From: Candidatus Falkowbacteria bacterium
GTDB taxonomy: Bacteria > Patescibacteriota > Patescibacteriia > Patescibacteriales > UBA12465
Assembly (NCBI GenBank): GCA_037137655.1
Contig: JBAXJX010000002.1
Span: forward strand, 101,730-165,729
Length of the DNA: 64,000 bases
Direction: 5' to 3'
A program made the translations under genes and the position numbers. Of the stretch, positions 1 through 26,920 are shown piece after piece. The stretch's first letter is position 1, and each line of letters starts with the position of its first letter. The notes under the pieces were generated by a model, which did no database searches, had not been told where the DNA came from, and was given only the letters and a program-made list of their open reading frames with translations.

Positions 1-1
1 T

Positions 2-274
2 GATTTAGATAATACTTTTAAAGATTGTTTAGATATTGCCAAAAAGAAAAATGCGGATTATGCCGATACCGACAATCCTTTTAAAAACTTTGAGATGTCA
101 GCTATAGTCGGAATTGATCCGGCACATGCTATATTGGTTCGTATCAGTGAAAAGTTAGCCCGCATTGGCGGCTTACTTGATCGCGCGGCTGTCGTAGAAG
201 ATGAAAAAATTGAAGACACTTTAGTGGATCTAATTAACTATTGTGCCATTCTAAAAGCATACTTAAAAAAATAA
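2..274 (+). CDS. C-terminal part of a DUF1599-like (nucleotide-modification-associated domain 1) protein; 5' end lies outside the window
   Basis: Open frame from the window edge to TAA 272-274. Translation reads ...KKKNADYADTDNPFKNFEMSAIVGIDPAHAILVRISEKLARIGGLL..., which resembles the DUF1599 pattern as I remember it. Not in the ORF track because it is truncated. Confidence 0.4.
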   Translation, partial: DLDNTFKDCLDIAKKKNADYADTDNPFKNFEMSAIVGIDPAHAILVRISEKLARIGGLLDRAAVVEDEKIEDTLVDLINYCAILKAYLKK

Positions 275-275
275 T

Positions 276-770
276 ATGATAAAACACAAAGAACAGCGTG
301 TTGGTATCTTGGTCGATGTTTCGAACATGTACCATTCCGCTAAAAATCTTTATAATCGCAAAGCGAATTTTAAAGAAATTCTAACTCAAGGTGTTGCTGG
401 CCGAAAATTAATTCGAGCCACCGCCTATGTTGTTACGACTGAAAACAAAGACGAAATGAACTTTTTTGAAGCTCTTAGTCAACAAGGATTTGAAGTTAAA
501 ATGAAAGACTTACAAATTTTTGCTGGTGGCGCTAAAAAGGGTGATTGGGATGTCGGTATCACAATCGATGCCATGAAATTAGCTGATAAACTCGATGTTA
601 TCGTGCTTGTTTCTGGTGATGGCGATTACTTGCCAGCCGTTTCTTATCTCCAAAACAACAAAGGTTGCTTGGTGGAAATTATGGCCTTCCGTAAAACCAC
701 TTCATCAAAATTAATTGAAGAAGCTGATGATTTTATTGACCTTGGTAGTAATAAAAAATTCTTAATATAG
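276..770 (+). CDS. NYN-domain (LabA/DUF88-like) putative RNase
   Basis: VGILVDVSNMYHSAKNLY at the N-terminus and VLVSGDGDYLPAV are typical of LabA-like NYN domains. The ATG lies 1 nt after the upstream stop. Confidence 0.8.
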   Translation: MIKHKEQRVGILVDVSNMYHSAKNLYNRKANFKEILTQGVAGRKLIRATAYVVTTENKDEMNFFEALSQQGFEVKMKDLQIFAGGAKKGDWDVGITIDAMKLADKLDVIVLVSGDGDYLPAVSYLQNNKGCLVEIMAFRKTTSSKLIEEADDFIDLGSNKKFLI

Positions 771-785
771 AAACTGCATTTCAAA

Positions 786-817
786 AACAAGCCTCACTTC
801 GAGGCTTGTTTTTTTGT
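786..817 (+). terminator. intrinsic terminator
   Basis: AACAAGCCTC / GAGGCTTGTT 10-bp stem, 5-nt loop, then a T7 run. Confidence 0.8.
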
Positions 818-906
818 GCAAAAAAAATTTGCTCAAAACAAAAAAGCTTGTTATATTAAAAGCGCAAAAATTGATCTTTAAAAATAAATCTTTAAAATTT
901 TAGGAA

Positions 907-1521
907 ATGAGGAAAGTAATTGAATTTACCAGAATTTTTATTTTACCGCACTGGCGCCAAATAATAAAAGGAGCCAATAGAATTTATCATGAAACTGACA
1001 ATAAACTGTTTAAAGTTACCACAAACAGTAAATGGACTGAGGAAATAATTATAATTGATCCTGGCACAGCCGATGATCACATTGGCCACCGAACTATAAT
1101 GGTAAAGTTTAAAGTTTCTCCCCAAAAAGATATTTTAGAAGTAGTCGGTGGTTTACCACAAAAATATCTCGGCGTGCAATTTTTCAAACATGAAGCCGCT
1201 AAAAGAGAAACTAAAAAAGCTAAAAAATTAATTCCTTCTAAAACAGAGTTTTATTATTTATTACAAAGAGACCTACGCGCTATTGGCCAAATCGCTTTTT
1301 TTCTTCAATTAGAAAATACCAAAACGCCATATCTCAAAGCTCTCTGTCCACCAAATAATAAAGCACTGGTTATGACTAATGACAATTGTTTTGCCTCCAA
1401 AACCCAACGTTATCCCGGATTAAAATTTAAAATTTTTATTCCTAGTAAAGAAGATTGCGAGAGTTGGGGTAATGACAATTGGTTCTTGCCGGTAATTTGC
1501 TACAAAGAAAAAAGATCTTAA
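907..1521 (+). CDS. hypothetical protein
   Basis: 204-aa ORF bounded by terminators on both sides. No motif recognised. Confidence 0.5.
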   Translation: MRKVIEFTRIFILPHWRQIIKGANRIYHETDNKLFKVTTNSKWTEEIIIIDPGTADDHIGHRTIMVKFKVSPQKDILEVVGGLPQKYLGVQFFKHEAAKRETKKAKKLIPSKTEFYYLLQRDLRAIGQIAFFLQLENTKTPYLKALCPPNNKALVMTNDNCFASKTQRYPGLKFKIFIPSKEDCESWGNDNWFLPVICYKEKRS

Positions 1522-1528
1522 ACCACGA

Positions 1529-1556
1529 AGTCCTGTTAAAAAACAGGACTTTTTTA
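1529..1556 (+). terminator. intrinsic terminator
   Basis: AGTCCTGTT / AACAGGACT stem, AAAA loop, T5 run. Confidence 0.8.
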
Positions 1557-1573
1557 TTTCAAAAATTTCACCA

Positions 1574-1605
1574 AATAAAAAAGCCGTTTCTTTGTGAAAC
1601 GGCTT
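1574..1605 (-). terminator. intrinsic terminator for the leftward gene 1617..2186
   Basis: AAGCCGTTTC / GAAACGGCTT stem. On the minus strand it is followed by a T-rich run (plus-strand AAATAAAAA). Confidence 0.65.
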
Positions 1606-1616
1606 ATAATAAAATT

Positions 1617-2186
1617 TTAAATTTGTTTTGTTCTACCATAAGGTTTAAAAACTCGCGGATGATTTCCGGGTGAGCCAAAACCGTGATACTCAAGGAGTCT
1701 AAAAACCACGATACGCAAACCAGTACTATCAGCAGATGGACGATCGTAAACATGAATAGAAAAAACATTCTCCCTATAATTTTGTTCGTCCAAAATTAAA
1801 TTTTCATCCTTTTTACAGAAAAACATAGTTGGCGTAATTCCCGGAGAAAAAAGATAAGAAAATGCTCGACATGCTTCTACAATTTGATGTTGTGATAAAA
1901 TTTTATCATTCATATCACCTGGCAACGCATTAAAAATGTCGAGTAAACTACTGCGACTCAACACTTCATAAATTCCAACGCCAGTTTCTCGTGTCGCAAC
2001 ACCACAACTTGTTAAACCAAACTCTTTAAAACACATATCAATTTCTGGAAAAATTTTATGAGAATTAAAAATAATCGTTTGACCATCTAACGCTGGTAAT
2101 TCTACATAAACATCTCGCCCCATTTCTCCATCACCATCATTAAATCTTCTCAAGACGCATTGCGCCTGATCACTAAGTGCTTTCAT
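1617..2186 (-). CDS. hypothetical protein, distant member of the shared C-terminal module family
   Basis: 189-aa ORF. The C-terminal half (IFNALPGDMNDKILSQHQIVEACRAF...FFCKKDEN...RIVVFRL) loosely parallels 2883..3545 and 26393..26920. Confidence 0.55.
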   Translation of the reverse strand: MKALSDQAQCVLRRFNDGDGEMGRDVYVELPALDGQTIIFNSHKIFPEIDMCFKEFGLTSCGVATRETGVGIYEVLSRSSLLDIFNALPGDMNDKILSQHQIVEACRAFSYLFSPGITPTMFFCKKDENLILDEQNYRENVFSIHVYDRPSADSTGLRIVVFRLLEYHGFGSPGNHPRVFKPYGRTKQI

Positions 2187-2206
2187 CTTCTTCTAATTTT
2201 ACAGGT

Positions 2207-2761
2207 TTAAAACATTTTGTTTTTAATTGCTAAAAAATAATAACTAGTTTCCCAATCACCATTATACCAAGCTAAATCTAATGAGCGCCCTAAATAATTA
2301 TTATTTATAAACGGCACACCAAAATGATTATTGCTACATTTAATAAGTGATCCTAGGGCCACAACTTCATGCGAGCTTTGTGGTGGAATCCCAACAACTT
2401 CATCAAAAGTTAATAATTCTAATAAAGTCGCTGGCCGATAACCAGCCGCCTTTATTTCCGCTAAAATTAAATCGCTACCCAACTCCACACTAAAGTGAAA
2501 TAAGCGCGCCAAAACTTTAACATTATCTTTTTTTGTTTTGCCATCTTCACAACAGCTTCTAACAGCTAGCTCACTATCCACAAAATCATATTTTCCAAAA
2601 ATAATTATGTCATTAACAGTTCGACTATAATTAATTGTAAAAATAATATTTTGCACTGTGAAAATTGTGCCACCATAGTTTTCGTCGGTTTTTTGGAAAT
2701 CCGACTGAGCTCGAGTCATAAAACTCGCCCCCAATAATAACAACAAAGTTATTTTTCTCAT
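2207..2761 (-). CDS. secreted hypothetical protein
   Basis: N-terminal Sec-type signal MRKITLLLLLGASFMTRAQS. The C-terminus reads PATLLELLTF...VVALGS...GVPF...GRSLDLAWYNGDWETSYYFLAIK. No known family recognised. Confidence 0.6.
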   Translation of the reverse strand: MRKITLLLLLGASFMTRAQSDFQKTDENYGGTIFTVQNIIFTINYSRTVNDIIIFGKYDFVDSELAVRSCCEDGKTKKDNVKVLARLFHFSVELGSDLILAEIKAAGYRPATLLELLTFDEVVGIPPQSSHEVVALGSLIKCSNNHFGVPFINNNYLGRSLDLAWYNGDWETSYYFLAIKNKMF

Positions 2762-2882
2762 ATCTTATATATTTTTAATGAACGACTAAATTTCTTATCC
2801 CTCACCTTATAATTAGATAGGTGTTTTGTCAAATAAAAAACCCGCTTCATTATTGAAACGGGGATTTTTTGTTTTTGAAATT

Positions 2883-3545
2883 TTAAACTTTAATACCTAT
2901 TCTATTTGGAACAACCACGTGATGCAAGTCAGTGGCAAACAAAACCACTTCATCAATAAAACGACGAACAAACACATAGAGACCACCGGAATCTACGCAC
3001 ACACCAACCACAAAATATTCATTATCTTTTTTGATTAGAAAAATTGTTGATTTTCCATCACCACCTTGACGTAAGCGATTTGGATATTTTTCACAAAAAC
3101 AAATAATTTGGGCTTGGGTCATTACCAATTTATCCAAATCACTGTTTAAAGAATTAAACACTTCAACAAATTTAGCATCCACTGTTAATTCGAATTCGTA
3201 AACGAATGTTTCTTTCGTAGGTTGATTATTATTGTTTAATCTAAATTTTTTAAAATCCGGATCAATGCCACCTTTAAATATTTCACTGGAATCATAGATT
3301 TTACGTTTACCATCAGTGGCTTCAATTAGTGCTTTTTCAACCATAAATGCGGACAAAAAGATAAACAAGTTGTTTTTCTGATTTTCAACAGGAGCTAAAG
3401 CTTCATTTAAAACTTTTTTTAGAGCTTTCGGATTTTCAATCCAGCCTTGCATCACATCAGAACTAATTTCCGGTAAGCAAGTTGCCACGGTCGCGATAAA
3501 TCTCGCGGTGTGCGCATCATAGGTATTCGCATTTTTAGTTTTCAT
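2883..3545 (-). CDS. hypothetical protein, clear paralog of 26393..26920 in its C-terminal ~110 aa
   Basis: VMTQAQIICFCEKYPNRLRQ...TIFLIKKDNEYFVV...HHVVVP aligns with VTPAQIVRFCEKYPEKLGQ...NIFLIKENEKHVVV...YHIFVP. Confidence 0.65.
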   Translation of the reverse strand: MKTKNANTYDAHTARFIATVATCLPEISSDVMQGWIENPKALKKVLNEALAPVENQKNNLFIFLSAFMVEKALIEATDGKRKIYDSSEIFKGGIDPDFKKFRLNNNNQPTKETFVYEFELTVDAKFVEVFNSLNSDLDKLVMTQAQIICFCEKYPNRLRQGGDGKSTIFLIKKDNEYFVVGVCVDSGGLYVFVRRFIDEVVLFATDLHHVVVPNRIGIKV

Positions 3546-3604
3546 GCGTTTTTTCCTTTCTTTTTTTTAAATAACATTTTTGCTAATTCAACCGAGCAAA
3601 GCGG

Positions 3605-3626
3605 ATAATAATCCCGGGATTATTAT
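3605..3626. repeat. perfect 22-nt palindrome ATAATAATCCCGGGATTATTAT
   Basis: Read directly from the sequence. It lies in the divergent intergenic region between 2883..3545 (-) and pnp (+), about 170 nt upstream of the pnp ATG. Confidence 0.9.
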
Positions 3627-3795
3627 GAATTATATTTATCATGTATTGGAGTAATTGTCAACACTTCATACCTTTACAAATCCAAAAAAACATTATATAC
3701 TAGCCTTGTTTTACAATAAACTGTTTGACCGCCGGATACATAGCACTGTTAGAATGATCTACAGTCTTATAATCTGTCGGCCAAACTCAAAAATT

Positions 3796-6072
3796 ATGCA
3801 AAATAACGAAAAAATCGTTAGCGGCGAGTGGTTAGGCCGAACTCTAACCTTTAAAACTGGTAAATTAGCTAAACAAGCTGATGCGGCCGTTTTAGTACAA
3901 TATGGCGAAACTATCGTTCTAGCAACAGTAGTAGAAGCCAAAACTGAGCGTGATGGTGTAAATTTCTTCCCACTTATGGTGGAATTTGAAGAAAAATTAT
4001 ACGCCGCCGGCATTATTAAAGGCTCTCGTTGGGTTAAACGTGAAGGTCGTCCAACTGATCAATCTGTTTTGACTGGTCGTATGATTGACCGTTCAATTCG
4101 CCCACTTTTTGACCAAAAATCAAAGAAAGATGTCCAAGTTATCACTACTGTTTTATCAGTTGATGGTGTTAACGATTACGATGTTGTAGCTTTAGTAGCT
4201 GCTTCAGCTGTTTTAAGCATCTCTGGTATTAAATGGGATGGCCCAATTGGAGGCATCCGCGTTGGCTTAGTGAACGATGAGATGGTTTTTAATCCAACTT
4301 ACGAACAACAAGCACTTAGCTCTTTAGATTTGATTGTAGCCGGTACTGATAAAAAGGTTATCATGATTGAAGCTGGTGCTAACGAAATTCCTGAAGATAA
4401 AGTTTTGGCCGCTATTATTGCCGGTCAACGCGAAGTTCAAGGTGCTATTAATTTAATCAAAGAATTACAAGCAACTGTTGGTGTTAAAACTAAAACAGCT
4501 ACCGAAAAGTTAGTAAGCACAATCGAAGCTGAAGCTAAAGCTGTTAAAGATGAATTATTAGCTGTGGGTGAAAAATGGTTAAATGAAAATATTAAAACTC
4601 ATTTATTCGATAAAACTTATTATACAAAAAACGAAAGAAAAGCAGCTGTTTATGTTATTAAACAAAATTTAGATGCTTATCTTTTCGCTCAAAATGTCGA
4701 AAAAGCTAATCGCGATTACGTTATTAAATCTTTGGCCGAAGATATGATCGAGGCTGAAGTGACTCGCGCGATTTTAGAAGAAGGTCGTCGTGTTGACGGT
4801 CGTGCTATGAATGAAATTCGTGATTTATCAGCTGATACCGGCTTTTTACCACGTAATCATGGTACTGGTTTATTCTCTCGTGGTGAAACTCAAGTTATGT
4901 CGATCGTCACTTTAGGTGCTCCAGGACTTGAACAAACATTAGAAGGCTTGGAAGGTGTTGTTAAAAAACGCTACATGCATCATTACAACTTCCCACCATA
5001 CTCCGTAGGTGAAGCTAGTCCACTTCGTGGTACTGGTCGTCGTGAAATTGGCCATGGCGCTTTAGCTGAAAAAGCTTTAATTCCAGTATTACCATCAAAA
5101 GAAGAATTCCCTTACACAATTCGCGTGGTTTCTGAAACTTTAGGTTCTAATGGTTCATCTTCTATGGGTTCTACTTGTGGTTCAACTCTAGCTTTAATGG
5201 ATGCTGGTGTTCCAATCAAAAAACACGTTGTTGGTATTGCCATGGGTCTAGCTTCAAACGCTGACATGTCAAAATGGCAAGTTTTAACCGATATTCAAGA
5301 TTTAGAAGATGGTAACGGTGGTATGGATTTCAAAATCACTGGTACTGACGCCGGCTTAACCGCTATTCAATTGGATACTAAAACTACTGGTTTAACAGAA
5401 GAAATTATGAAAATAACTTTTTCTCAAGGCCGTGTTGCTTTAAACCAAATTTTAGAAGTACTTAAGGCTGATATTGCTGGTCCAAAACCAGAATTATCTA
5501 AATATGCTCCACGTATTTTAACTGTTAAAATTGATCCAGAAAAAATCGGAGCCGTTATTGGTTCTGGTGGTAAAACTATTAACAAGTTAGTAGACGAATT
5601 CGAAGTTACTATTGATATTGATGATGATGGTTTAGTGATGATTTGTGGTGTTGATGCTGCTAAATGTGCTTTAGCTAAAAAAGCCGTGGAAGATATCGTT
5701 CACGAATTTGTCGCTGGTGAAATTTACACTGGTAAAGTTACCAGATTAATGGATTTCGGTGCTTTTGTAGAATTAGTAGCTGGCAATGAAGGTTTAGTTC
5801 ACGTTAGTGAAATGGCACCTTACCGTGTTAGTCGCCCAAGTGATTTCTTAACTGTCGGTGATAAAGTTACCGTTAGAATCAAAGAGATCGATGATCAACA
5901 TCGCGTTAATCTAACCATGAAAGGTCAAGATGAAAATCAACATTTATGGAAAGATGAAAAAGGTAAGATGAGTGCTGAGGCTTCATCTGACGGCGGTCGT
6001 GGCGGATTTGGTGGTCGCAGCAACTTTAGTCGTGGCGGAAACGATTCTCGCCCAAGTCGTCCAAGATACTAA
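3796..6072 (+). CDS. pnp: polyribonucleotide nucleotidyltransferase (PNPase)
   Basis: Two RNase-PH-like halves (NGSSSMGSTCGSTLALMDAGVP), a KH motif (GAVIGSGGKTIN) and an S1 domain (GEIYTGKVTRLMDFGAFVEL). Start moved from TTG 3655 to ATG 3796 (MQNNEKIVSGEW). The C-terminus has an RGG-rich tail. Confidence 0.95.
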   Translation: MQNNEKIVSGEWLGRTLTFKTGKLAKQADAAVLVQYGETIVLATVVEAKTERDGVNFFPLMVEFEEKLYAAGIIKGSRWVKREGRPTDQSVLTGRMIDRSIRPLFDQKSKKDVQVITTVLSVDGVNDYDVVALVAASAVLSISGIKWDGPIGGIRVGLVNDEMVFNPTYEQQALSSLDLIVAGTDKKVIMIEAGANEIPEDKVLAAIIAGQREVQGAINLIKELQATVGVKTKTATEKLVSTIEAEAKAVKDELLAVGEKWLNENIKTHLFDKTYYTKNERKAAVYVIKQNLDAYLFAQNVEKANRDYVIKSLAEDMIEAEVTRAILEEGRRVDGRAMNEIRDLSADTGFLPRNHGTGLFSRGETQVMSIVTLGAPGLEQTLEGLEGVVKKRYMHHYNFPPYSVGEASPLRGTGRREIGHGALAEKALIPVLPSKEEFPYTIRVVSETLGSNGSSSMGSTCGSTLALMDAGVPIKKHVVGIAMGLASNADMSKWQVLTDIQDLEDGNGGMDFKITGTDAGLTAIQLDTKTTGLTEEIMKITFSQGRVALNQILEVLKADIAGPKPELSKYAPRILTVKIDPEKIGAVIGSGGKTINKLVDEFEVTIDIDDDGLVMICGVDAAKCALAKKAVEDIVHEFVAGEIYTGKVTRLMDFGAFVELVAGNEGLVHVSEMAPYRVSRPSDFLTVGDKVTVRIKEIDDQHRVNLTMKGQDENQHLWKDEKGKMSAEASSDGGRGGFGGRSNFSRGGNDSRPSRPRY

Positions 6073-7990: not shown

Positions 7991-9232
7991 ATGAAAAATT
8001 ATGTAAGTTTAATCAGTTTGGTATTTATTACCATGTTATTAGCGTTTAACTCTTGTAGAAAAGAAGATTTCGCTAAACCAATGAGTAAAAAAATTAATGT
8101 TGACAACAAGGTCGGCGCGGAAAAAACGTTTTCAATAAACTATGAATTTCCTGCTGGCAGTAATTTAAAGTCAATGATCACTGGAGTAATTGATAGTGGC
8201 AGCACTGTCAAATTAGGCACTACCGGAAACATTGCTCTTTGGACGTCACCATCAACAAAATGCGACTGGACTTTAGATGGTGTAAAAATCAACAACAATG
8301 TTGACCAAATTTTAGCCAACCTAACAACAGATCACAAAACCTATTGTGTGGTAGCAACAAAAACTGGCAGCACTGAAAAAGTTACTTTTTACCTTAATGT
8401 TAACACTGACTCAATTGTTAAAGTTATCACTCCTGTTATTACTGGAGCAAATACCTTAATAAGATTAGTTAGTGTTCAAAGCGTTAGTGGTAGTTGGTTA
8501 TTAACTTGGAAAGCGGCAAAACAAATTAGCGCACCAAATTATGCTTATTATTCAAACTGGAGTGGTAATTATCAAAACATGAATAGTTTTGACAAACCAA
8601 CTGTAGTTAGTAGTGATAGTGTAGAATTTGCCTTTTATCTTCCAAACAATGGCTCGTCTAGCACTAGAAGAACTTTTGCCGTAGCAACTGGAAGTGGCTC
8701 TTGGTTTTCAGCCAATAGCGTAAACTGTCCATTCTATGATCAAGCTTATTTTGGTTCTGGCAACAGCACACCCGACAATGTATTTACATTCTACTTTGAC
8801 GGAACGACTGGTACGGTTACTAATGCCGCTAAAACAATCGTTGTTCCTGGACAAAAAACAGTTCCAATCGTTGAACAAACCCCTGGAACTCTTGGTGACA
8901 CCACCAACGCTGTAAACACCGCTCAGATTATCAATGGAAACTTAGTAATTTATATTAAGTTACCAGCTGGCTCAACTGTAGTTTTCCAAAGCTCAGCCAC
9001 CGCCGCAACTGCACCAACAGCCGCTTGGACTAGTTACATAATAACCAGTTCAGTACCCGGAAGTGCTTCATGGTCTAGCGCTACAATTCTAGCTTCTGAT
9101 CTTAACAAGTACAATTGGTGGATTTATGGAACCGGTACTAGCAATGGATACAAAAGCGATCCCAACATGATTAAATCATTATTTTATTTAAAAACAGCTG
9201 GGGCTTGCTACTTGAGTACATTAGGTCGATAG
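7991..9232 (+). CDS. putative surface lipoprotein, paralog A
   Basis: Signal peptide ending LLAFNSC, then conserved DFAKPMSKK. The whole length is collinear with 9407..10627. No known domain recognised. Confidence 0.7.
   Translation: MKNYVSLISLVFITMLLAFNSCRKEDFAKPMSKKINVDNKVGAEKTFSINYEFPAGSNLKSMITGVIDSGSTVKLGTTGNIALWTSPSTKCDWTLDGVKINNNVDQILANLTTDHKTYCVVATKTGSTEKVTFYLNVNTDSIVKVITPVITGANTLIRLVSVQSVSGSWLLTWKAAKQISAPNYAYYSNWSGNYQNMNSFDKPTVVSSDSVEFAFYLPNNGSSSTRRTFAVATGSGSWFSANSVNCPFYDQAYFGSGNSTPDNVFTFYFDGTTGTVTNAAKTIVVPGQKTVPIVEQTPGTLGDTTNAVNTAQIINGNLVIYIKLPAGSTVVFQSSATAATAPTAAWTSYIITSSVPGSASWSSATILASDLNKYNWWIYGTGTSNGYKSDPNMIKSLFYLKTAGACYLSTLGR
8963..9037 (+). repeat. 75-nt near-identical patch shared with 10361..10435
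   Basis: 73/75 nt identical (differences C/T and T/A). It encodes PAGSTVVFQSSATAATAPTAAWTSY in both genes. Flanking sequence is much more diverged. Confidence 0.9.
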
Positions 9233-9406: not shown

Positions 9407-10627
9407 ATGAAAAAAGTAGTAAGAGCAGTCGCATTATTATGCGCAGTAGTAACATCAGTTTTTTTTACAAGCTGTAAAAAAGATGGAGATTTTGCCAAAC
9501 CAATGAGTAAAAATATCGTAACACCCAACACTGACGGGTTTTCCGTTTTATACTCGTACAACCCAGGAGGCAGTTTAAAAGCTTTCGGTGACAGTATTTC
9601 TGGAATTATTATTGAAGGTGATACCGTAAAAATGGGTAGCACTGGAAATTTAATCTTAACAACCACTCCAGTTACAAAGTGTAATTGGGTGTTGGACGGA
9701 GACACAATTGCTAAAAATGTTGACCAAGCATTATTAAGTTTAAAAACTAAAAAGGTTTATTCCGTTTCGGTTATAAACGCTTCTAATGCAAAACAAAAGG
9801 TTAACTTTAAAGTAGATGTGGCTAGCGCTCCAGTAGTAATACCACCATTACCAGGAATAAGTAAATTGTTGCGCCTAATCAGTATTGAACAAGGCAGCAC
9901 AACATCACTTTTAACTTGGCGAGCATCAAGACAAAAAACACTAAGCACAACTTACACCTATTTAAGCAATTGGACTTCATGGACCACCGGAACAGCTTTT
10001 TACAATAGTACAATTCTAAGCACCGATTCCATTGAATTTTCTTTTATGATTGATAATTCTGGTTTAGCCAGTGTTAGAAAATCGTTTATGCTTATGCAGA
10101 GTAATGGGACTTGGTTAGTTGCTGATAGCACTGCTTGTCCATTCTACGACCCATTGTTTGATAGTAATCATGATGGAACACCAGACAACGTGTTTAGTTT
10201 CTATTATGATGGAACCAATGCTCACGTCTACGACGCTAACAAATCACTAGTTGTTCCACAGGCCGCACCAATAGCTGCGCCCGGAAAATTAGGCGATGCC
10301 ACTAATGCTGTAAACACCGCTGAAGTAACTGGAGGTAATTTAATTATTTATGTTAAAATGCCAGCTGGTTCAACTGTAGTTTTCCAAAGCTCAGCCACCG
10401 CCGCAACAGCACCAACAGCCGCTTGGACTAGTTACTTATCAACCACCGCTGTTCCCGGAACAACATTCTGGTCTAGCGTTACTGTTCTAGCCACCGATCT
10501 CAACAAATACAATTGGTGGATCTATGGTACCGGAACTGGAGTAACTTACAAAAGCGATGCCAACATGAGTCAATCAGCCTTCTGGATTCCAGCCGCTGGA
10601 GCTTGTGGTGTCTCACTGTTAAAATAA
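9407..10627 (+). CDS. putative surface lipoprotein, paralog B
   Basis: Signal peptide ending VFFTSC, then DFAKPMSKN. Shares with paralog A the motifs TKCxWxLDG, CPFYD, TPDNVFxFYxDGT, DLNKYNWWIYGTGT and a C-terminal AGAC. Confidence 0.7.
   Translation: MKKVVRAVALLCAVVTSVFFTSCKKDGDFAKPMSKNIVTPNTDGFSVLYSYNPGGSLKAFGDSISGIIIEGDTVKMGSTGNLILTTTPVTKCNWVLDGDTIAKNVDQALLSLKTKKVYSVSVINASNAKQKVNFKVDVASAPVVIPPLPGISKLLRLISIEQGSTTSLLTWRASRQKTLSTTYTYLSNWTSWTTGTAFYNSTILSTDSIEFSFMIDNSGLASVRKSFMLMQSNGTWLVADSTACPFYDPLFDSNHDGTPDNVFSFYYDGTNAHVYDANKSLVVPQAAPIAAPGKLGDATNAVNTAEVTGGNLIIYVKMPAGSTVVFQSSATAATAPTAAWTSYLSTTAVPGTTFWSSVTVLATDLNKYNWWIYGTGTGVTYKSDANMSQSAFWIPAAGACGVSLLK
10361..10435 (+). repeat. 75-nt near-identical patch shared with 8963..9037
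   Basis: See 8963..9037. Confidence 0.9.
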
Positions 10628-26392: not shown

Positions 26393-26920
26393 ATGGAAAA
26401 AATACATATCCTTACGCCACTATCTTTTGATGAGGCTATGGTCATTGAAAAAATTACGGATAGCCGGTTAGTTCTCGCTAGAGTTGATGACGTTTTTAAA
26501 GCAGGTATTGATTATTATAATTTTGAAAATTGGGCGGATAATTTTGAAAAATGGGAATCTGATAAACCTAATATCGACACTGAAGAAATCGAGGTTAAAG
26601 TATTTAAATTGACTAAATCAGCTAAGTATACCGACATATTCGGTTCATTTCAAAACAGTTTAGATGAGGTTTGTGTCACCCCAGCTCAAATTGTGAGATT
26701 CTGTGAAAAATATCCAGAGAAGCTCGGTCAAAAAGATGAAAATATTTTTCAAGCCAACATTTTCTTGATAAAGGAAAATGAAAAACATGTAGTAGTTCTT
26801 GCATATATGGAATCTTGTGGTCCAAGCGCCAAATTCCACCGCATTGATAATAAAGGTATTTGGAACGCTGATTATCTGTATCATATTTTTGTTCCCGCAA
26901 CTTGCCGCTTAAAAGCGTAA
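26393..26920 (+). CDS. hypothetical protein, paralog of 2883..3545
   Basis: Shares ...F.LT.SAK....F.S....LD...VTPAQIVRFCEKYPEKL...IFLIKENE..VVV...H.FVP with 2883..3545. Confidence 0.65.
   Translation: MEKIHILTPLSFDEAMVIEKITDSRLVLARVDDVFKAGIDYYNFENWADNFEKWESDKPNIDTEEIEVKVFKLTKSAKYTDIFGSFQNSLDEVCVTPAQIVRFCEKYPEKLGQKDENIFQANIFLIKENEKHVVVLAYMESCGPSAKFHRIDNKGIWNADYLYHIFVPATCRLKA

Follow-up and report, generated by a model that had tools for sequence, protein, structure and literature searches.

Unlinked, probably no longer diversified paralogs of a retroelement target protein family in a Candidatus Falkowbacteria genome

Genes A to D and the family of A, B, and C

The DNA analyzed here is a window of 64,000 nucleotides (64 kb) from contig JBAXJX010000002.1 of a Candidatus Falkowbacteria bacterium (assembly GCA_037137655.1), in which the listing of open reading frames (ORFs) confirmed four genes that had been singled out in a preliminary description and that are called A, B, C, and D in the following. 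Gene A (2883–3545, minus strand, WCK37_03485) encodes a protein of 220 amino acids (aa), in which a helical N-terminal head (aa 1–59, nt 3369–3545) precedes a family domain (aa 60–220). Gene C (1617–2186, minus strand, WCK37_03475, 189 aa) and gene B (26393–26920, plus strand, WCK37_03605, 175 aa) encode the family domain alone, whereby C belongs to a subtype characterized by a “KKDEN insertion”. Gene D (2207–2761, minus strand, WCK37_03480, 184 aa) lies on the strand of A and C, in between the two, and its product has a signal-peptide-like N-terminus. As outlined below, we suggest with a probability of about 0.8 that A, B, and C are unlinked and no longer diversified paralogs of a variable-protein family of diversity-generating retroelements (DGRs). 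A fourth paralog, T, is encoded outside the window (locus L037, 8526–9185).

The homology between A and B was confirmed by BLASTP (E 7e-24, 32% identity over 167 aa, A 63–219 aligned to B 12–174), and the motifs from which it had originally been read (LDxxVMTQAQIIxFCEKYP, IFLIKxxxE, and HxxVP) are all located inside this alignment. The weaker resemblance reported for C proved to be genuine membership, as A and C align with E 1e-12 over 101 aa and the family hidden Markov model (HMM) recovers C with E 3e-48 (2.6e-48), next to 1e-79 for A and 3e-57 for B. The direct comparison of B and C is weak (E 1e-4). The similarity of the three genes thus lies far beyond chance. The loosely similar ending ascribed to D did not hold, since D shows no BLASTP similarity to A, is negative in phmmer, and is missed by the family HMM even at E≤10 with filters off. 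A further copy was not found in the window by six-frame and profile searches. The shared region had been given as about 110 aa but actually extends over about 160 aa and comprises nearly all of B (aa 4–175) and C (aa 9–189). Because the shared unit covers almost the whole of these two proteins, the statement that the N-terminal halves are unrelated was wrong: B and C are essentially headless and only A carries an extra head of about 59 aa.

The three proteins are not orphans, as had been assumed. A word-indexed search yielded 32 relatives and an exhaustive profile search, as the preliminary description had proposed, led at E≤1e-3 to 2,405 representatives of clusters formed at 50% identity (812 at E≤1e-30), which according to named sources and genome titles belong overwhelmingly to the Patescibacteria, for which candidate phyla radiation (CPR) is another name. 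Comparison of A, B, C, D, and a neighboring product, ORF204, with Pfam, NCBIfam, PHROGs, and PADLOC gave sub-threshold noise only, no PDB sequence was found below E 0.18 in a profile search, and a Pfam scan of 120 diverse family members did not reveal any recurring family. Pfam families of the CLec, FGE-sulfatase, or DUF1566 type were found in 0 of these 120 members at E≤0.1. An assignment of the module to an already characterized domain, which had been named as an alternative outcome, was thus not obtained from any of these databases. From sequence comparison, the family is a large and unnamed CPR/Patescibacteria domain of about 160 aa with no Pfam entry.

Linkage of the family to diversity-generating retroelements

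Gene neighborhoods were compared for 33 loci outside the window, 30 of them from GTDB genomes, plus three further loci. Two family genes (P0008 and P0007) are located directly upstream of a bAvd gene (PF22296) and an RVT_1 reverse transcriptase (RT) gene. In both genes, the final stretch of about 115 nt, termed the variable repeat (VR), recurs a few hundred nucleotides downstream as the template repeat (TR), and the two copies differ almost exclusively at positions where the downstream copy has an adenine, mostly within AAC or AAT codons. Alignment of 24 TR–VR pairs, the cassette of L037 counted in, assigned 345 of 376 mismatches (92%) to TR adenines. Since the differences concentrate on template adenines, this constitutes the TR/VR signature of a DGR. 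Tabulation of the neighborhoods, which the preliminary description had likewise proposed, placed an RT within 6–8 kb in 18 of the 33 loci, in 17 of which Avd is also present. At the protein level, column entropy among 175 members is highest at the alternating sites marked x in EYFVVxVxVxSxGLxVxVxRFxxxxVWxAxxRxRVVVPQL, and it is these sites for which the templates have AAY codons. The family is therefore a target, i.e., the variable protein, of DGRs.

The usual cassette consists of a target gene on the plus strand, sometimes a second target gene on the same strand, followed by TR (plus), bAvd (minus), and RT (plus). The TR adjoins the 3' end of avd, a gene in antisense orientation, and the start codons of avd and RT are about 10 nt apart and divergent (L037 8526–10996; also L005, L006, L012, and L027). 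Because of this orientation, a transcript leading from TR to RT would run antisense through avd. An RT is absent from 15 of the 33 loci, which include the tandem pairs in L026 and L025.

A, B, and C show homology over the full domain to members with a demonstrable VR (P0008, P0007, and others). The conserved VR scaffold pattern (FVVxVxVxSxGLxVxVxR ... VW ... RxRVVxPQL) is almost complete in A and partial in B and C. The VR-equivalent of A (2907–3014, minus strand, aa 178–213, FVVGVCVDSGGLYVFVRRFIDEVVLFATDLHHVVVP) can be regarded as a fossil variable repeat, whose 3' boundary motif is degenerate. In B (26789–26896, plus strand, aa 133–168) the 3' boundary reads GTTCCCGCAACTT, compared to GTTCCGGCAACTT in T and TR. 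The VR-equivalent of C (1641–1766, minus strand, aa 141–182) is the most decayed of the three, and its DNA alignment is unreliable in this part.

Twelve of the related contigs (L008–L010, L014, L017, L021, L022, L025, L026, L030, L032, and L035) are titled “uncultured Gammaproteobacteria” (TPA metagenome-assembled genomes), and the same CPR-type DGR cassette is nevertheless present in several of them. These titles are probably placeholders or mis-assignments. A viral origin of the family was considered and not supported: among 2.9 million contigs of IMG/VR, only 2 have a family member (L039 and L040), and in neither of them does the sequence read contain an RT. Either rare carriage by phages or a wrong classification of CPR contigs would account for these two cases.

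The family domain occurs in various unusual architectures (P0105, P0120, P0033, P0034, and L025 5164–6939). Some proteins contain two or three tandem family domains. In P0105 a DnaJ domain is followed by an S/T/P-rich linker, one transmembrane helix, and then the family domain, and one protein of the set has a DUF3536-type N-terminal domain. Besides these fusions, at least three unrelated types of short helical heads are found across the family. The head of A (…TARFIATVATCLPEISSDVMQGWIENPKALKKVLNEAL, aa 1–59) recurs on P0026–P0032 with 56–72% identity and thus appears to be a mobile module. A remote homology between the C-terminal domain of P0026–P0032, which also comprises about 160 aa, and the family domain was considered as well and is unsupported (hhalign probability 7%).

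Resident cassette, window copies, and predicted scaffold

Within the 64-kb window neither RT, Avd, nor TR-like DNA was detected. The same genome carries one DGR cassette, which was found outside the window in the 965,192-bp Candidatus Falkowbacteria contig by using a Falkowbacteria DGR RT as query. The RT (P0226) comprises 331 aa and has kept the LGNLTSQ and YADD motifs. In two sister assemblies the cassette locus consists of the gene for T (219 aa), a 116-nt VR, a 116-nt TR, bAvd, and RT, followed by rpsB-tsf, whereby resident VR and TR are 86% identical. T (WCK37_01175), A, B, C, and D all have WCK37 locus tags of one metagenome-assembled genome, so that a DGR-type RT and Avd are present in the same genome as A, B, and C. 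According to the locus-tag numbering, the cassette is about 460 genes away from the window cluster. The template of T permits about 6e14 protein variants.

In order to relate the window copies to this template, the TR was aligned to the tails of T, A, B, and C, and adenine and non-adenine TR sites were scored apart. Each DGR homing event returns the non-adenine positions of the VR to the template sequence. T matches the TR at 89 of 90 non-adenine sites (99%) and at 11 of 26 adenine sites. The non-adenine match decreases to 62/90 (69%) in A, 52/90 (58%) in B, and 35/86 (41%) in C, which is near background, and the adenine sites agree at 7/26, 17/26, and 7/25, respectively. Homing would reset the non-adenine sites, and thus these mismatches suggest that A, B, and C have long been unserviced by the resident TR. 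Compared with the only TR found in the genome, none of the three shows differences that are essentially restricted to adenines, as would be expected for a cognate template. The GC content agrees with this: the VR of A, B, and C has 0.37–0.39 against 0.33–0.35 in the rest of the gene, and DGR-linked active targets have 0.55–0.63 against 0.45–0.47. The VR GC content of the window copies has almost relaxed to the level of their own genes, in agreement with no ongoing homing. The VR regions of A, B, and C share 17–24% protein identity among each other, and because their tails differ, one alternative template could not serve all three. Judged by these alignments, A, B, and C are not current DGR targets. 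The preliminary description had spoken of a rapidly diversifying accessory family, which is correct in so far as the family is a DGR target, yet the copies within the window are not being diversified.

The relationships outside the VR, given here as core identity, hint at where the three genes came from. B is closest to T with 53% core identity, a common ...FVPATCxLKA C-terminal tail, and a similar 3' flank, and looks like a duplicate of T. A is closest to the first targets of cassettes in other genomes (46–52%) and is nearest to this “first-target” type of DGR variable proteins. C has 32–37% core identity to second targets (with E 5e-22 in the case of the one in L006), compared to 17–27% to its window paralogs, and its KKDEN insertion is typical of second targets in two-target cassettes of other genomes. 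By these sequence relationships, the array A-D-C resembles the target pair of a former cassette whose TR-avd-RT module was lost and into which D was inserted. Of the 9 codons of A that correspond to AAY in the template, 8 have retained the form NNY, compared to a background of 0.54, which may be a weak footprint of past adenine mutagenesis. Overall, it seems that A, B, and C descend from once-diversified targets and are putatively still binding proteins, albeit with frozen specificity. In another Falkowbacteria genome, a decayed family paralog is located immediately downstream of an active DGR cassette (L016 8528–9211), which indicates that retired copies can adjoin a working element.

This leads to the following model. 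In an active family member, the last approximately 115 nt of the gene are the VR, which would periodically be overwritten by cDNA from the nearby TR. The cDNA would be made by the pair of bAvd and RT, which would misread adenines, and in this way about nine AAY codons could be converted to codons for any of 15 amino acids. The working cassette of the genome would be the one outside the window, consisting of T, TR, bAvd, and RT. A, B, and C would be duplicates that are not serviced by the resident template, so that their VRs would have drifted at positions that homing resets, and each of them would by now specify a binding domain of fixed sequence.

AlphaFold2 (AF2) models were analyzed for A and B. 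The model of A has a pLDDT of 83.9 (residues 70–215 above 90) and that of B a pLDDT of 86.9 and a pTM of 0.83, and both models agree on an alpha/beta domain whose end is formed by a long beta-hairpin, followed by a loop and a last strand. In the numbering of A, the templated codons correspond to residues 181, 183, and 185 in the first strand of the hairpin, residues 190, 192, and 194 in the second strand, and residues 198, 200, and 203 in the loop, whereby conserved V, L, and F residues alternate with the templated positions. One face of the hairpin together with the adjoining loop would thus form the randomized binding surface, and the opposite face would pack on the core. Foldseek searches of the two models against the PDB and a search against BFVD gave no match at E≤1e-3. 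The 50 matches listed per Foldseek search include no DGR variable protein and, as the sole C-type lectin-like domain, human MCL (E 0.86, TMq 0.23). Going by the models, the diversified scaffold may be new. Neither a signal peptide nor a hydrophobic segment of transmembrane grade was detected in A, B, C, and T, which suggests that these proteins are located in the cytoplasm.

The surroundings of A, C, and D had been described as an array next to a DUF1599/NYN pair. The NYN assignment was confirmed (E 4e-35), whereas the DUF1599 match is weak (E 5e-4, below the Pfam cut-off) and comes from a gene that is cut by the window start. The adjacency to DUF1599/NYN is not kept in any other related locus examined, and no homologs of NYN, ORF204, or D were found in the other related loci examined (L004–L038). 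In many bacteria, rpsO and pnp are adjacent. Here, the genes for NYN, ORF204, the DUF1599-like protein, C, D, and A separate rpsO (S15) from pnp (PNPase) (window 1–6072; L001 7474–14044), and the stretch between them looks like a variable insertion hotspot. Further downstream, two ORFs on the plus strand (7991–9232, 413 aa, and 9407–10627, 406 aa) are adjacent paralogs with 81% nucleotide identity over 281 nt and no Pfam match.

Alternative explanations and relation to known systems

Three other explanations were weighed against retirement from diversification. It would be conceivable that A, B, and/or C are still active remote targets, which the resident cassette or a second template at some other place in the genome serves in trans. 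For some DGRs, such targets are on record at distances above 100 kb from the RT, although in the survey of Wu et al. they occur only outside the CPR set (PMC5758913). B has a near-intact 3' boundary motif and a T-like 3' flank, but a target in use must match its TR at the non-adenine sites, and neither B (58%) nor A (69%) or C (41%) comes close to the 99% of T. The TR comparison covers the resident cassette and the window of the 965-kb contig, and a second template might lie elsewhere on it; however, the low aa identity of the three VR regions (17–24%) would require a separate template for each, and the best 120 RT matches include only one RT from the 965,192-bp contig. We therefore regard continued targeting as very improbable. 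Somewhat better, but still unlikely, stands the idea that A, B, and C are functionless, decaying duplicates of a DGR target that are heading for loss. Their VRs have indeed drifted, with scaffold changes in the tail of A (W to L, R to H, PQL to PNR) and more changes in B and C, and C is very diverged with its 17–27% core identity to the window paralogs. Against decay, each of the three genes is an intact ORF of full length, the genome that contains them is a streamlined one of 965 kb, and nearly invariant core residues (F, QI, FCEK, F.L, P) are largely kept in A and B, whereas C has EACRAF instead of FCEK. The models of A and B fold confidently (pLDDT 84–87). Members without DGR linkage are frequent (15 of 33 loci), with tandem pairs and fusions of three domains among them, which argues that unlinked copies are maintained.

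The preliminary description had pictured the family as variable heads on a common tail, and from this one could derive a diversification by shuffling of N-terminal heads onto a constant C-terminal tail, without any mutagenesis machinery. Heads do vary across the wider family, and the head of A recurs on proteins with a different C-terminal domain. However, B and C are headless, the programmed hypervariable part is the C-terminal approximately 36 aa of the supposedly common tail, where the strongest variability coincides with adenine-templated codons, and RT, Avd, and TR accompany 18 of the 33 loci. As the main mechanism, head shuffling is contradicted and hardly deserves credence; it survives as a secondary feature in the form of modular heads.

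Several points also weigh against our preferred explanation that A, B, and C are retired DGR targets, or against parts of it. The activity of the resident DGR is deduced only from the 99% non-adenine match of T, because the VR of T is identical in the L037 and L038 assemblies and every 90% cluster has a single member. The genome was read over the 64-kb window and the DGR locus of about 16 kb, and a second TR or RT might be present elsewhere on the 965-kb contig. Statistical support for the NNY footprint is weak, with P about 0.03 for A and no significance for B. The geometry of the hairpin face is taken from the AF2 secondary structure, which was obtained with alignments of 27 sequences, and not from coordinates. 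Finally, the cytoplasmic location may not be general, because the J-domain and transmembrane architecture of P0105 implies an extracytoplasmic family domain.

DGRs as such are well known, as is their abundance in CPR genomes, and A, B, and C belong to this known kind of system as DGR variable proteins. What may be new is a widespread scaffold that is possibly not a C-type lectin fold and the retention of retired copies. Roux et al. (2021) described CPR-restricted “clade 2” DGRs, whose targets lack transmembrane segments or other recognizable domains, and presumed that the uncharacterized VR domains are new variants of the C-type lectin fold (PMC8144416). Wu et al. (2018) placed CPR VRs in “unknown VR” classes (UVR1–6) with undecidable fold (PMC5758913). 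The annotated VR-bearing domains in such surveys have so far all been C-type lectin folds. The family studied here resembles the published description of the clade 2/UVR targets with regard to the host group, the small size, the lack of recognizable domains or transmembrane segments, the C-terminal VR, the combination of bAvd and RT, and the adenine-specific TR–VR differences. Unlike the CPR targets of these surveys, A, B, and C are unlinked and non-diversified paralogs, a state that is not described there (PMC8144416, PMC5758913). With remote targets as in Treponema denticola and others (PMC5758913) they share the situation of paralogous target genes that are scattered on a chromosome with a single RT, but those targets differ from their TR at adenines only, which is not the case for A, B, and C.

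With the C-type lectin variable proteins Mtd of Bordetella phage BPP-1, TvpA, AvpA, and TaqVP (PMC2408619, PMC5006420, PMC6328139) the family has in common a stable scaffold that displays AAY-templated C-terminal residues, and the scale of the theoretical repertoire is comparable (6e14 for T). In contrast to these proteins, there is no CLec-type Pfam match (0 of 120 members) and no PDB match at E≤1e-3, and instead of a loop-rich surface the variable residues of the family would alternate along two beta-strands. Taken together, it might be that the family represents a structurally undescribed DGR scaffold other than the C-type lectin fold with its randomized residues on one hairpin face, that most members, having neither signal peptide nor transmembrane segment, act in the cytoplasm, and that CPR genomes keep retired copies such as A, B, and C as a germline-like set of fixed specificities beside a diversified copy. 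We put this combined proposal forward tentatively, with the odds rather against it.

For the Candidatus Falkowbacteria genome, the finding makes three CPR “hypothetical proteins” interpretable as probable frozen relatives of the one protein that the cell deliberately hypermutates. For the family as a whole, it makes a sequence profile available, together with two confident models, for a very large group of DGR targets. If true, a well-populated exception to the lectin fold would extend the range of structures known to tolerate massive variation, and the family could provide the DGR-based directed-evolution systems that are under construction with a scaffold that is compact and possibly cytoplasmic. 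With T active and A, B, and C retired in one genome, there would also be a natural experiment on what becomes of a variable protein after its diversification ends.

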